IMG/VR virus record: IMGVR_UViG_3300015360_000024
Coordinates: 1 to 64,000 of that record
DNA from: a virus
Reading direction: 5' to 3' (one strand)
DNA: 64,000 bases
This document shows, in pieces, positions 44,292 to 50,001 of this stretch. Made by a program: the position numbers and the translations under genes. Below the pieces are notes generated by a model that made no database searches, was not told the origin of the DNA, and saw nothing but the letters and a program-made list of their open reading frames with translations. Each line of letters begins with the position of its first letter. Positions within the stretch are counted from its first letter, which is position 1.

Positions 44292-44418
44292 TGGACCAAC
44301 CAGGAGTTGAACCTGGATCTCTCCCTTGCATGGGTAACCATTTCTCGGCCGGCTCGCTTGCGCGAACAATGGATTTAAAACGGGTTTTTTGAGCGTGCTG
44401 CCGTTGCACCATCGGTCC
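44292..44418 (-). ncRNA. tRNA-Y RNA chimera 3
   Basis: GGACCGA/UUGGUCC-A; insert with UUGUUCGC-GCAA-GCGAGC(C)GG and GGUUACC. Confidence 0.8.
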
Positions 44419-44534: not shown

Positions 44535-45716
44535 CTACTCTACGCCCGTCACCACTCCGGCCCCAACGGTCTTACCACCCTCACGGACGGCGAATCGAGT
44601 TCCCGGCTCCATTCCGACTGGCTTGTGCAGCTTGAACGTGATGGCTGCGTGCTCGCCGGGACGAATCATGTCGAGATCTCCAGTGCCCTCCACGGTCCCC
44701 GTGACGTCGGTCGTCCCGAAGAAGAACTGCGGCCGGTATCCCTTGAAGAACGGCGTGTGACGACCGCCCTCGTTCGTGGGAATGACGTACAGCTCTGCGT
44801 GGCCAATCGTGTGCGGCTTCACCGAGCCCGGAGCGATCAGAACCTGGCCACGAACGACCTCGTCCCTCTTCACTCCGCGCAGGAGGATTCCGCAGTTCTC
44901 ACCCGCCCGAGCCTCCTGCTGATCCTTGTGGAACATCTGGATGCCCGTAACAGCGACCTGGCGAGGCTTCTGGTCTTCGCCTTCAAGGCCGATGATCTCG
45001 ACCGTAGCGCCGAGGGCTAGAACGCCTCGGTCGATGCGTCCGGTGACCACGGTGCCACGACCTTCGATCGTGTGAACTCCCTCGATGGGCATCATGAACG
45101 GGGACGTGAAGTCACGGATCGGGTCCGGGAAGTGCTTGTCCATCGTCTCGACCAACTCCTTGATACACGCGACATCCGCGTGATCTTTGCCGTGCTCTCC
45201 GATGGCAGCCAGCGCCTTGAGGGCAGAGCCGCAGACCATCGGCGAGTCGAGGTACTTCTGAGCCTTGAGGAAGTCCGAGGTCTCCTCTTTGACCAGCTCC
45301 AGCAGCTCTGGATCCGCGACGTCCACCTTGTTGATGAACACCACGATGTGCGAGACGCCGACCTGACGAGCCAGAAGGATGTGCTCCTTGGTCTGCGGCT
45401 GAGGTCCCTGAGATCCGTCCACCAGGAGCACTGCGCCGTCCATCTGGGACGCGCCTGTGATCATGTTCTTGATGTAGTCGGCGTGCCCCGGGCAGTCGAT
45501 GTGCGCGTAGTGCCGAGTCTCTGACTCGTACTCGACGTGAGCGATGTTGATGGTGATACCTCTGGCCTTCTCCTCGGGGGCTGAGTCGATCTGATCGAAC
45601 TCGACTGCCTTCCCGCCTCGAATCTTTGCCATCACCTTGGTGATAGCGGCCGTCAGGGTGGTCTTGCCGTGATCGACATGACCGATGGTTCCTACGTTCA
45701 CATGCAACTTGCTCAT
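44535..45716 (-). CDS. tuf: elongation factor Tu (divergent)
   Basis: [51 protein letters not shown]. Confidence 0.97.
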
Positions 45717-47790: not shown

Positions 47791-47798
47791 ATAAACCG

Positions 47799-47870
47799 TA
47801 CACGAGGTGGGGATCGAACCCACGATCTCTGCGATGTCAACGCAGTATTCTTCCGCTGAACTACTCGTGC
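47799..47870 (-). tRNA. tRNA-Val(GAC)
   Basis: Cloverleaf. Confidence 0.9.
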
Positions 47871-47874
47871 AAAT

Positions 47875-47951
47875 TGACGAACAAGAAGTGCAGCTGAGCG
47901 TTTGGATCAGATTATTAGTCAGATTGATAACTCAACTACGACGGCTCGTCA
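47875..47951 (-). ncRNA. Y RNA-like a
   Basis: 5' UGACGAGC(C)G..GUAGUUGAGUUAUC ... CUCAGCUGC..UUGUUCGUCA 3'. Confidence 0.8.
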
Positions 47952-47959
47952 GAAAAAAC

Positions 47960-48019
47960 GGCGAACAAGGAGATGATCGTGGGGTCATTTTCAAGGTAAC
48001 CCATGATCTTCGGCTCGCC
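47960..48019 (-). ncRNA. Y RNA-like b
   Basis: 5' GGCGAGC(C)GAAGAUCAUGGGUUACC ... UUGUUCGCC followed by a U run. Confidence 0.85.
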
Positions 48020-48026
48020 AAAAACG

Positions 48027-48296
48027 TTAGGCCTGATGGATCGGAATCTGGAACGACAGGCCTTTGCCTTCCAACATCTGGTCGTGAAGACGGTCGATGA
48101 GCTTCTCGAACGGGTAGTCGTCGTCTGAGGCGCCGACGTGCGTATGGTCCTCTCCGAGGTATAGGGTCAGCGAGTTGCCACCCCAGTCCGGCGCAAACGA
48201 GACGACCGGCTTGCCGCTGCCTGGACCTTCTCCATCCTCATTGCATCGCTTGACGATATTCCTGAGGATCTCTTCGCATTTCTCTGCTGTCGTCAT
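48027..48296 (-). CDS. hypothetical protein
   Basis: 89 aa. Confidence 0.65.
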   Translation of the reverse strand: MTTAEKCEEILRNIVKRCNEDGEGPGSGKPVVSFAPDWGGNSLTLYLGEDHTHVGASDDDYPFEKLIDRLHDQMLEGKGLSFQIPIHQA

Positions 48297-48312
48297 TCAT
48301 GGCCTCGGTGAG

Positions 48313-48387
48313 TGGTAGCGCTTAGGGGTATCGATCCCCTTTCCTCTGTTGGAAAGACAGATGTTCTAGCCAGTGAACTAAAGCGCC
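48313..48387 (-). tRNA. tRNA-Glu(UUC)
   Basis: Cloverleaf, CCA, T loop AUCGAUA. Confidence 0.85.
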
Positions 48388-48468
48388 GTAGGGTGATTTT
48401 TGACTTATTGAAATTAATGGCTACTATTATCCAGATGATCTTGATGTCGATCTCAGCGCGAGGAATTT

Positions 48469-48672
48469 ATGGACATCAAGGAATTGGCGGGCCTGCTCAT
48501 CTTCTACGGTGACCACAAAGATCACTGCGGAATTTCACGTGTACTCTACCACCGAGCTATCACGAACTCGGACCGTCCGGTCACCTACCCGCCATGTGAT
48601 TGCGGCTGGAATGAAGCTCGAAAGAACGCTGCCGGGATCATCAGGACGAGCGGCGCCCATGGATGGCCGTAG
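48469..48672 (+). CDS. hypothetical protein
   Basis: 67 aa, GAGG RBS. Confidence 0.55.
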   Translation: MDIKELAGLLIFYGDHKDHCGISRVLYHRAITNSDRPVTYPPCDCGWNEARKNAAGIIRTSGAHGWP

Positions 48673-48744
48673 AGCACGCCGAGGGAGTTTAACCCGTCGA
48701 TCCTGGTTTTGCAGACCAGTGCCTTACCGCTTGGCTATGCGTGC
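48673..48744 (-). tRNA. tRNA-Cys(GCA)
   Basis: Cloverleaf, U73. Confidence 0.85.
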
Positions 48745-49190
48745 AGAACGAAGTCTGACCAATGTTTGGACGTTTGAATCCTATGACAGTTGGCACAGAG
48801 CAAGATGCATTTGTCGACCTCAGCTTTTAGTTGCTCAGTGTTGTATTTTTTGGGGTGCCTGATCATCAAGGTCACGTCGCCCGTCTTGCTTCCAGGGTCC
48901 TTGTGATGAAATTCCAGGCACGGCAAGCGACTCTCTCCGCACGTCGAGCATCGGCATTGCCCGAGGTACATCGCCCATTCGTGCTTCCTTCGCCAAAACA
49001 GGTTTGACAGGTATGTAGGATTCGCCTGTCTCTTCTTGGCGGCCTTATCTAGGTAGTCAGGCTTGGAGCGCTCTGTTTGGCGATACTTCTTAATGCGATC
49101 CTGGTTATTCAAGTACCAGTGCCGCTTCCTGCATGGCGTGGAGCAAAACTCGCCATCGCTTACTTTGCCATGACAGGTCGCGCACTTCAT
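48735..49190 (-). CDS. HNH endonuclease
   Basis: CSTCGE...CLEFHHKDP...VDKCILLCANCH. Confidence 0.85.
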   Translation of the reverse strand: MKCATCHGKVSDGEFCSTPCRKRHWYLNNQDRIKKYRQTERSKPDYLDKAAKKRQANPTYLSNLFWRRKHEWAMYLGQCRCSTCGESRLPCLEFHHKDPGSKTGDVTLMIRHPKKYNTEQLKAEVDKCILLCANCHRIQTSKHWSDFVLHA

Positions 49191-49267
49191 CTACGCGATC
49201 ATAAAACAACTGTCTACGTCAGATCCAGTGCAATCTGTAGCCAGGCCGCCTGGTGACGTGCAAAAAA

Positions 49268-49331
49268 CGCGAACAAGAAGATGAACCTGGGGGAAATCTT
49301 AAATGGATAACCCAAGCTCGAACGGCTCGCG
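49268..49331 (-). ncRNA. Y RNA-like c
   Basis: 5' CGCGAGC(C)G...UUGGGUUAUC ... UUGUUCGCG followed by a U run. Confidence 0.85.
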
Positions 49332-49340
49332 AAAAAGATA

Positions 49341-49466
49341 GACGAACATGGTGCGTGGTTGGACGTTGAGAGCGGATTCAAACCGCTACCTCCGGGGTTT
49401 TCAGCCCAGGCGCTCTCTCAGTTAAGCTACTCCGATGGTGCGGTAATCCAATCACTTCGGCTCGTC
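49341..49466 (-). ncRNA. Y RNA-like d enclosing a tRNA-Phe(GAA)-like domain
   Basis: Ends GACGAGC(C)GAAG / AUGUUCGUC; upper stem UUGGA/UCCAA; internal D arm, CU-GAA-AA loop, T arm AGCGG-UUUGAAU-CCGCU; acceptor only 3 bp. Confidence 0.75.
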
Positions 49467-49467
49467 T

Positions 49468-49543
49468 TGGCGACCCTACGGGGATTCGAACCCCGATTGA
49501 CCGACTGAGAATCGGCTCTCCTGGCCAGTTGGAGGATAGGGTC
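49468..49543 (-). tRNA. tRNA-Glu(CUC)
   Basis: Cloverleaf, CCA. Confidence 0.9.
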
Positions 49544-49547
49544 AAAA

Positions 49548-49612
49548 AGCGAACAATTTGGTGAAGCAGGGGTTTTTCAACCATTTGATAACCCTGCCTC
49601 GTCCGGCTCGCT
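49548..49612 (-). ncRNA. Y RNA-like e
   Basis: 5' AGCGAGC(C)GG..GCAGGGUUAUC ... CCCUGC..AUUGUUCGCU followed by a U run. Confidence 0.85.
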
Positions 49613-49617
49613 CAAAA

Positions 49618-50001
49618 CTAAAGCGCTACTGAGTAGAGCGCTGGGTAGCGTAGTCTGGCCTTGCGTTCCTTTTCGAGGAAGGCTGGCAGCTCGATGAATT
49701 CTGTGCCGTGGTCTTCTCCGCCAAAGATCCAGATCAGCGTCATTCTCGCCTGAGCGATGAGACGCTCCTGGTTGAATCGGCCTCCGTCTGTACCATCTTG
49801 CCGGATGATCAACGCCGAGCCCCACACGCTTCGGTCTGAGGCATCTGGCTTCCAGTCCGGGGCTCCGATGCCGATACTCAGCGGAAGAAGCCCTCCGATC
49901 CTGCCGATGACATCCATCATCTTCAGCAGCAAGCGGTGATCGGTAAGGAACGGCCCGCTTTCAAGTTCGGCCCAAAGCCCGATAACATCATGCATTCTCA
50001 T
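49618..50001 (-). CDS. hypothetical protein
   Basis: 127 aa, AGGAG RBS. Confidence 0.55.
   Translation of the reverse strand: MRMHDVIGLWAELESGPFLTDHRLLLKMMDVIGRIGGLLPLSIGIGAPDWKPDASDRSVWGSALIIRQDGTDGGRFNQERLIAQARMTLIWIFGGEDHGTEFIELPAFLEKERKARLRYPALYSVAL

Follow-up and report, generated by a model that had tools for sequence, protein, structure and literature searches.

What is encoded by the four short, similarly built hairpins that lie among the tRNA genes of a phage genome, and which protein would they serve? The question arises from the first 64 kb of a 193,958-bp IMG/VR virus record (IMGVR_UViG_3300015360_000024, 91% complete), a 64,000-nucleotide stretch hereafter called the window, where a first-pass annotation had described a multi-copy array of Y RNAs. 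These RNAs and the ring protein Ro60 are known from animals, about 5% of bacteria (PMC4201824) and some phages. We consider it likely that the four elements, a to d, are genes of a compact Y RNA class, here called mini Y RNAs, which are released from tRNA-array precursors and are partners of the phage's own Ro60. This reading is based on their sequence, fold, covariation and family membership, on the presence of a Ro60 gene and on the genomic linkage of the family to Ro60; from these we infer transcription, processing route, Ro60 binding, a role as gate or tether, and a role in infection.

The elements are all on the minus strand and measure 60-77 nt. Their limits, taken from the covariance model R1 presented below, agree to within 1 nt with those first annotated. 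They are given here with R1 score, z of the minimum free energy (MFE) and, for two of them, the score against the Rfam family RF01656 (nematode stem-bulge RNAs, sbRNAs; ceN72-3_ceN74-2):

47875..47951, minus strand: mini Y RNA a (77 nt); R1 49.1 bits; MFE -24 kcal/mol, z -3.7; RF01656 25.6 bits
47959..48020, minus strand: mini Y RNA b (62 nt); R1 62.3 bits; z -2.9; RF01656 31.8 bits
49267..49332, minus strand: mini Y RNA c (66 nt); R1 64.6 bits; z -4.0
49547..49613, minus strand: mini Y RNA d (67 nt); R1 65.0 bits; z -2.9

Each RNA has the layout 5'-NNN-CGAGC-C-G, followed about 10 bases on by G(G/A)GUUA(U/C)C and ending in (C/A)UUGUUCG-NNN-3'. Within the window, CGAGCCG-N6-22-GTTAYC-N15-45-TTGTTCG was found 4 times, whereas 100 dinucleotide-preserving shuffles did not yield it once. 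In the common fold, a terminal helix of 7-8 pairs leads to an unpaired C and a 2-bp step (CG). Beyond these come a short asymmetric internal loop (AG in its 5' strand, CA..ACUU in its 3' strand), then a variable 8-9-pair upper stem, and finally a small, A-rich loop of ~9-27 nt opened by UUAYC; the MFE of this fold is 2.9-4.0 standard deviations better than that of shuffles. The terminal pairs indeed co-vary between copies, as first annotated (UGAC/GUCA, GGC/GCC, CGC/GCG and (G)AGC/GCU(U), complementary in each), and the upper stems are unlike in sequence yet paired in every copy. Furthermore, identity between copies is 95-100% over 20 core positions and 34-64% over the remainder. The hallmark of a Y RNA, paired 5' and 3' ends bearing a conserved Ro60 site, is therefore seen in the folds, in the alignments and in the covariation of the helix. 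A plus-strand reading was rejected, since motifs, adjoining tRNAs and folds alike belong to the minus strand.

The copies differ in their details. Copy a has the terminal stem UGACGAGC/GUUCGUCA, the bulged C, the upper stem GUAGUUGAG/CUCAGCUGC and then UUAUC, and its 27-nt loop contains a small hairpin of its own. Copy b, which begins a few nucleotides past the stop codon of the open reading frame (ORF) 48027-48296, is built from GGCGAGC/GUUCGCC, the bulged C, CGAAG, the upper stem GAUCAUGGG/CCCACGAUC and UUACC, and is followed by GUUUUUUC and then copy a. Copy c combines CGCGAGC/GUUCGCG with the upper stem GAGCUUGGG/CCCAGGUUC and UUAUC, and copy d (G)AGCGAGC/GUUCGCU(U) with GAGGCAGGG/CCCUGCUUC and UUAUC. 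The U tails reported for most copies are there (GUUUUUU in b, UUUUUU in c, UUUUU in d, and just AUUU in a), with runs of 5-6 U parting b from a and coming after c.

The first question raised by such hairpins, whether the genome also encodes the protein, has a clear answer. A search for the TROVE domain found a complete Ro60 in the ORF at genome positions 173450-175123 (plus strand; TROVE 134.7 bits, vWA_Ro60 210.4 bits). The protein matches Deinococcus radiodurans Rsr (2NVO) over its whole length with an E value of 4.5e-128 and Xenopus Ro60 with 6e-121. The closest bacterial Ro60s are 50-58% identical to it, and the protein of Thermus phage phiLo matches with an E value of 8e-7 only.

The second question is whether hairpins of this kind accompany Ro60 elsewhere. 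The exact pattern was found in 63 viral contigs of IMG/VR, where tens of chance matches are expected by our estimate. About 18 of the 63 were structurally valid on inspection, having both an extension of the terminal stem and an upper stem, and the remaining contigs were rejected as chance matches and used as a negative control. TROVE is encoded in 17/18 other viral records with valid copies, the exception being a 38%-complete fragment, and in 0/27 records with structurally invalid matches.

The model R1 was built from 24 sequences, a to d among them. The four fit it over model positions 1-66 with 49-65 bits, scores that are partly due to construction because a to d belong to the seed. In related viral records, R1 detects tandem sets of 2-6 copies, most of them at a distance of 0.3-3 kb from Ro60. 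A set of loci was also chosen by Ro60 itself, with an alignment of 14 phage Ro60s as query and without use of the RNA pattern; a locus search with a single phage Ro60 protein as query had retrieved no related loci. The sample comprised 80 phage Ro60 loci of at least 473 matches and 80 bacterial loci of at least 592. R1 gave 78 matches in 54/80 phage loci and 61 matches in 44/80 bacterial loci, every one of them on the Ro60 strand and most of them just upstream or downstream of Ro60, within a few hundred nucleotides. A strict descriptor (exact CGAGCCG/TTGTTCG, at most 1 mismatch, motif-free) yielded 6 matches in 80 Ro60 loci. It matched few because the helix covaries, with GGGC/GCCC, GGGU/AUCC and others, and a covariance model is therefore needed.

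This covariation is extensive. In the phage set, 93.8% of the pair cells are standard pairs, compared with 62% in shuffles and 32-47% in slid controls, and 358 double-sided changes were counted versus 110, a value that 0/500 shuffles reached. Across the family the helix takes the forms GAGC/GUUC, GGGC/GCCC, GGGU/AUCC and GAGU/AUUC. Near-invariant in the phage and bacterial sets alike are the unpaired C-G, AG, UU-A-Y-C, the CA that follows the upper stem and the ACUU that precedes the helix; the UU of UUAYC occurs in 68/68 and 61/61 members. A GAU lies 3-13 nt downstream in 37/101 members with UUAUC, versus 15 expected (alignments A1, A3 and A4), so that a subset of the family may form an AUC/GAU mini-hairpin. 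Pairing of UUAYC with a downstream GRU was rejected as a general feature: GAU is found in a subset, and UUACC comes without a matching GGU, with no covariation.

Elements a to d thus show what marks the mini Y RNA family: a full-length match to R1, UUAYC after the upper stem and linkage to Ro60. The architecture of the Ro60 site, the canonical Ro60 in the genome, the difference between valid and invalid viral records and the share of Ro60 loci with matches argue, at the level of sequence, for the multi-copy Y RNA array initially proposed.

That array is larger than the first list of four. All four are real, but the genome holds two more copies in canonical order. One, element e, is in the window, in the midst of the others; the second is a 176-nt Y-like RNA ~60 nt upstream of the phage Ro60 gene, outside the window. 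The latter (z -4.0) has the ends AGCGAGCCGAAG ... CUUGUUCGCU, the same as those of a to d, with an upper stem, GGUUACC and a multi-hairpin loop. In addition, three tRNA-shaped RNAs carry the Ro60 helix with its strands swapped:

49340..49467, minus strand: element e; regular-expression scan; R1 22 bits; RF01656 18.2 bits
44148..44275, minus strand: tRNA-shaped RNA with strand-swapped Ro60 helix; Rfam tRNA 41.7 bits, 70-nt insert; regular-expression scan
44292..44418, minus strand: second tRNA-shaped RNA with swapped helix and UGGUUACC; Rfam tRNA 40.8 bits, 67-nt insert; regular-expression scan
about 43264-43337, minus strand: third tRNA-shaped RNA with the swapped-helix core; regular-expression scan

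Element e has the canonical-order Y stem (GACGAGCCGAAG ... CAUGUUCGUC), an upper stem and GAUUACC, and its loop holds a tRNA-like domain, arranged D-to-T, at 49368-49432 (Rfam tRNA 34 bits). In the RNA at 44148-44275, the insert of ~70 nt, AUUGUUCGC-GCAA-GCGAGCCG plus UGGUUACC, stands in place of the anticodon arm. All three tRNA-shaped RNAs share the swapped helix UUGUUCGC-GCAA-GCGAGCCG plus UGGUUACC, closed by a GNRA loop. Two candidate canonical copies, at 44162-44216 and 44219-44358, were rejected as halves of two of these strand-swapped RNAs. The genome thus holds at least nine Ro60-site modules. The core CGAGCCG/UGUUCG is unchanged in every topology while all else has diverged, which points to one common binding partner.

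How do these RNAs relate to the Y RNAs already known? The description of the internal motif as vertebrate-like holds family-wide, since UUAYC is near-invariant and UUAUC, at the 5' end of the loop, is highly conserved in sbRNAs and also in vertebrate Y RNAs; the activity of sbRNAs in DNA replication requires it (Kowalski et al.; PMC4450293, PMC4726728). Nematode sbRNAs are treated in the literature as Y RNA homologues (Boria 2010 and Kowalski 2015, as cited in PMC4450293 and PMC4726728). The mini Y RNAs share an overall design with sbRNAs and vertebrate Y RNAs: the ends pair to a helix with a single bulged C and then CG-R-(A)G, the upper stem ends in G-G, UUAUC stands where the loop begins on its 5' side, the 3' strand contains CA..(A)ACUUG, and a U tail is frequent. 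The ends of vertebrate Y1, as printed in PMC3928194, have the same skeleton. Moreover, copy a contains GUAGUUGAGUUAUC, and the human Y1 sequence given for comparison at first pass is confirmed by the Y RNA1 primer GGCTGGTCCGAAGGTAGTGAGTTATC in PMC3928194. The extra likeness of copy a to Y1 in the upper stem is probably due to chance, because this stem varies freely in the family, and for the same reason the A/GUG-CAC upper-stem motif is not conserved in the mini Y RNAs.

Searches with the Rfam models gave a consistent picture. At E <= 10, neither a 3.2-kb nor a 165-nt search brought up any match of Y_RNA (RF00019) to the elements, and YrlA (RF02553) did not match a to d. RF01656 is the sole Rfam Y-type family that matches among the four, below its threshold of 38: b reaches 31.8 bits (E 3.6e-5 in the 165-nt search) and a 25.6 bits, and neither c nor d was matched in the 3.2-kb search at E <= 10. 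Copies a and b align end to end with the RF01656 consensus UCGGUCCGGaG..UGGGUUAUC...CCCA..CACCAACUUGACCG, and the consensus layout of the mini Y family is that of RF01656, whose threshold is passed by two bacterial relatives (L210:2872-2944, 41.4 bits, and L261:2126-2189, 40.4 bits). Unlike animal Y RNAs and sbRNAs, a to d are phage and prokaryotic RNAs and would probably be excised from a polycistronic tRNA transcript, not synthesized by RNA polymerase III. They are also short: the RF01656 model has 130 positions, and human Y RNAs, of about 84-112 nt, are far longer than the 60-77 nt of the mini Y RNAs.

Among prokaryotes, the Y RNAs so far described (YrlA, Yrn1) are tRNA mimics. YrlA is the tRNA-like Y RNA of bacteria and mycobacteriophages, and Chen et al. 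(2014, PMC4201824) located it next to Ro60 in 254 bacteria and 22 phages. Like YrlA, the mini Y RNAs are putative partners of a prokaryotic or phage Ro60, lie on the Ro60 strand and are linked to tRNA biology (PMC4201824); the YrlA 5' motif GNCGAAN0-1G is common to them (GCCGAAG in copy b). Unlike in YrlA, the loops of a to d have no tRNA-like module (T arm, acceptor stem, D arm), and both strands of the Ro60 helix are recognizable, whereas in the RNAs of Salmonella and Mycobacterium smegmatis only the 5' strand is (PMC4201824). Closer parallels are found in short hairpin Y RNAs without a full tRNA mimic that occur alongside a larger Y RNA, namely the "second" Y RNAs YrlB of S. Typhimurium and M. 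smegmatis and Yrn2 of D. radiodurans (PMC4201824), and Yrl1/Yrl2 of phage phiLo, whose Ro60 binds these two phage Y-like RNAs together with host PNPase (PMC12135203). Yrn2 shares a single precursor with tRNA-Asp and Yrn1 (PMC4201824), similar to the co-transcription predicted for a to d, and the phiLo RNAs, like a to d, are phage-encoded. However, YrlB homologues were seen within S. enterica only (Chen et al., PMC4201824), whereas the mini Y family occurs in many phyla and in phages; the mini Y loop is A-rich with UUAYC, as opposed to the "small and pyrimidine-rich" loop of the second Y RNAs; and the phiLo Ro60 is just distantly related to that of the present phage. This separation from YrlB, Yrn2 and Yrl1/Yrl2 was drawn from their published descriptions. 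Homology searches with metazoan Y RNAs had retrieved nothing in bacteria (Chen et al., PMC4201824). Our literature search found no description of a mini Y hairpin family or of Y RNAs in phage tRNA arrays, though the review by Sim et al. (2020) may contain one, and the family is apparently undescribed.

Two regions of Mycobacterium phage Essence (L270 2569-2641 and 2705-2782) hold the tRNA-like core of YrlA and a weak mini-Y match (20.6 bits), RF02553 matching only the T-acceptor-D core with 36.1 bits. They overlap genes 229 and 230, annotated as "hypothetical protein" upstream of a Ro-like gene, and these coding-sequence calls are probably RNA genes.

Why, then, would Y RNAs lie within a tRNA array? 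The window contains 44 tRNA genes (ARAGORN, Rfam), all on the minus strand within 33.6-55 kb, and a to d are on that same strand. On the minus strand the order is ORF 49618-50001, d, tRNA-Glu(ctc), e, c, a weak HNH ORF and tRNA-Cys, continuing with tRNA-Glu(ttc), ORF 48027-48296, b, a, tRNA-Val(gac) and tRNA-Thr. Two tRNA genes adjoin the mini Y RNAs directly:

47798..47870, minus strand: tRNA-Val(gac); ARAGORN; Rfam 65 bits
49468..49543, minus strand: tRNA-Glu(ctc); ARAGORN; Rfam 53.1 bits

The 3' end of copy a is 4-5 nt (AUUU) short of the 5' end of tRNA-Val(gac), where an RNase P cut would make the 3' end of the Y RNA. tRNA-Glu(ctc) lies between d on its 5' side, whose U-rich 3' end abuts the tRNA, and e on its 3' side, which begins right after the CCA end and is directly followed by c; maturation of this one tRNA would free both d and e. 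The 151-amino-acid ORF between c and tRNA-Cys (48735-49190, minus strand), which matches an HNH endonuclease with 19.4 bits, under the cut-off, looks like an insertion, because in the related phage fragment L050 tRNA-Cys is only a few nucleotides past the corresponding Y RNA.

This position is unusual but recurrent. L050 carries six copies at the same places of a syntenic tRNA array, in the order Y, tRNA-Glu(ctc), Y, Y, tRNA-Cys, tRNA-Glu(ttc), Y, Y, Y, tRNA-Val. In its orthologue of c (L050:11921-11988) the upper stem GAGCUUGGG/CCCAGGUUC is replaced by GAACCUUGG/CCAAGGUUC through compensatory changes, and in the orthologue of d (L050:11700-11768) U-A takes the place of a C-G pair in the lower stem. 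In the cultured Sinorhizobium phage Phosso (469 kb), R1 found two unannotated mini Y RNAs, each occupying exactly the space that annotated tRNA genes leave between them and ~130 kb away from the gene for the annotated Ro-like protein:

PV764938.1 420440-420496 (L273 3941-3997) and 420664-420735 (L273 4165-4236): Phosso mini Y RNAs

In the bacterial set, 16/61 R1 matches are <=25 nt from a tRNA on the same strand. Separately, on four contigs of bacterial metagenome-assembled genomes (L234, L213, L204 and L262), which may represent prophages or wrongly binned phage DNA, the Ro60 genes are flanked by tRNA arrays of up to ~19 tRNAs and by "tRNAs with an insert" of 117-136 nt.

The following course of events would account for this arrangement. 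Elements a to d are most likely transcribed together with the tRNAs in long precursors, from which they would be released by RNase P acting on the 5' ends of tRNAs, by tRNA 3' processing and by cuts in the U-rich spacers; co-processing with tRNAs is suggested by the precedent of Yrn2 (PMC4201824). Each would be a single long hairpin on which the Ro60 ring docks at the paired 5' and 3' ends, and the freed RNAs would bind the phage Ro60 encoded ~124 kb away. By analogy with Deinococcus and Salmonella (PMC4201824) and with phiLo (PMC12135203), the RNA would act both as a gate that covers part of the Ro60 surface and as a tether that couples the protein to an exoribonuclease of the host, for example PNPase. 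With isoforms that differ in their loops, more than one type of Ro60 particle would form in the infected cell, probably for RNA surveillance or counter-defense around the phage translation and tRNA apparatus. A functional lead for the phage Ro60 is offered, by analogy, by coliphage Bas63, in which a Ro60-like protein whose gene lies beside tRNA genes counters the ppl defense system (preprint 10.1101/2024.10.10.617714).

Several points weigh against this reading. All four elements are under the gathering score of every Rfam Y-type family. The covariation was counted on model-fitted alignments, which lean to the structure of the model, the margin being large. Elements a to d lie ~124 kb from the phage Ro60 gene, whereas most relatives keep such RNAs next to Ro60. 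PNPase/RNase PH, RNase II/R, RtcB and a CCA-adding enzyme were looked for in the phage genome and none was found, so that any effector must be host-derived. Finally, loops this short leave a tether little to hold on to, and the RNAs may therefore be gates only.

Of the functions suggested at the outset, partners for a phage Ro60 is the one that the genomic data favor most, and a sponge for host Ro60 is weaker. The latter idea, in which the hairpins are decoys whose Ro60 sites titrate or re-gate host Ro60 (Rsr) and blunt RNA surveillance, binding to the phage Ro60 being secondary, is in our view unlikely. The many copies, with nine or more modules in the genome, would suit titration, and the host protein could recognize the RNAs since the mini Y family also stands beside bacterial Ro60 genes and the closest bacterial Ro60s resemble that of the phage to the extent given above. 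However, the phage has its own intact Ro60 with a cognate RNA, and nearly all viral records with valid RNAs likewise encode Ro60, which a pure decoy would not need. In addition, Ro60 is found only in the small share of bacteria mentioned at the beginning (PMC4201824).

Somewhat less probable still is that the upper stem and UUAYC are the working part of the RNA and recruit a partner other than Ro60, for example a replication or nucleic-acid factor, with Ro60 storing or stabilizing the RNA. UUAYC is indeed conserved as sequence and not by pairing, AUC-GAU pairing being possible in a subset only, and UUAUC has been tied to an activity independent of Ro60 (PMC4450293, PMC4726728). On the other hand, UUAYC is kept in every Ro60-linked topology of the genome, strand-swapped ones included, and travels with Ro60 genes across the family, for which a contact within the Ro60 particle is the simplest reading, and no candidate partner gene is consistently adjacent.

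That the hairpins merely punctuate the tRNA-array transcript, as terminators or signals for processing or stability without a dedicated protein partner, is very improbable: 5-6-U runs do follow three of the four, U runs follow 21% of phage and 11% of bacterial family members versus ~2% of background, and a to d are placed exactly between tRNAs and ORFs, but a terminator scan calls none of the elements on the minus strand, the "stem" is a 60-nt interrupted hairpin unlike that of a Rho-independent terminator, most family members have no U run, and the invariant unpaired nucleotides, the Ro60 linkage in >90 loci and the core inside tRNA bodies would be left unexplained.

Partnership with the phage Ro60 remains the reading that we prefer, and it gives the mini Y RNAs a wider bearing. 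They are a compact hairpin class, missed by current Rfam Y models, that stands beside Ro60 in more than half of the sampled phage and bacterial loci and whose conserved letters, UUAUC included, recur in animal Y RNAs and sbRNAs. R1 provides a searchable model with which Y RNAs can be annotated in phages and metagenomes, and the class offers a testable link between the animal UUAUC motif and Ro60. Phosso, a cultured phage with mini Y RNAs in its tRNA array, is a possible laboratory system for their role in infection. For phage biology, Ro60 particles join the translation and RNA-repair toolkits of large-phage tRNA islands. More tentatively, and with the balance of our judgment on the negative side, the phage and bacterial RNAs could be true homologues of animal Y RNAs and sbRNAs, the signature having moved together with the Ro60 gene. 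If so, the bulged-C helix, CG-R-AG, UUAYC and CA..ACUUG would make up an ancient signature of the Ro60 particle; UUAUC, tied in animals to DNA-replication activity, would be primarily an element of that particle; and large phages would deploy sets of tRNA-array Y RNAs as interchangeable adaptors for RNA surveillance or counter-defense.

Other genes of the tRNA island, all on the minus strand of the window, were noted in passing. A complete three-domain EF-Tu gene is found at 44535-45716 (GTP_EFTU 206 bits, D2 69 bits, D3 97 bits), and a 121-amino-acid protein with a cyclic-phosphate-processing receiver domain (cREC_REC, 47.5 bits) is encoded at 43780-44145, immediately downstream of the pair of tRNA-shaped RNAs at 44148-44418 in which the Ro60 helix is strand-swapped. 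As context only, these neighbors suggest a setting in translation and RNA repair. The stretch 43126-43208 matches the bacterial small signal recognition particle (SRP) RNA with 42.1 bits, against a gathering score of 40, and may be a phage-encoded 4.5S-like RNA. Lastly, at 38823-38900, ARAGORN calls a tRNA with a four-base anticodon (taag) that overlaps the end of tRNA-Leu(caa).

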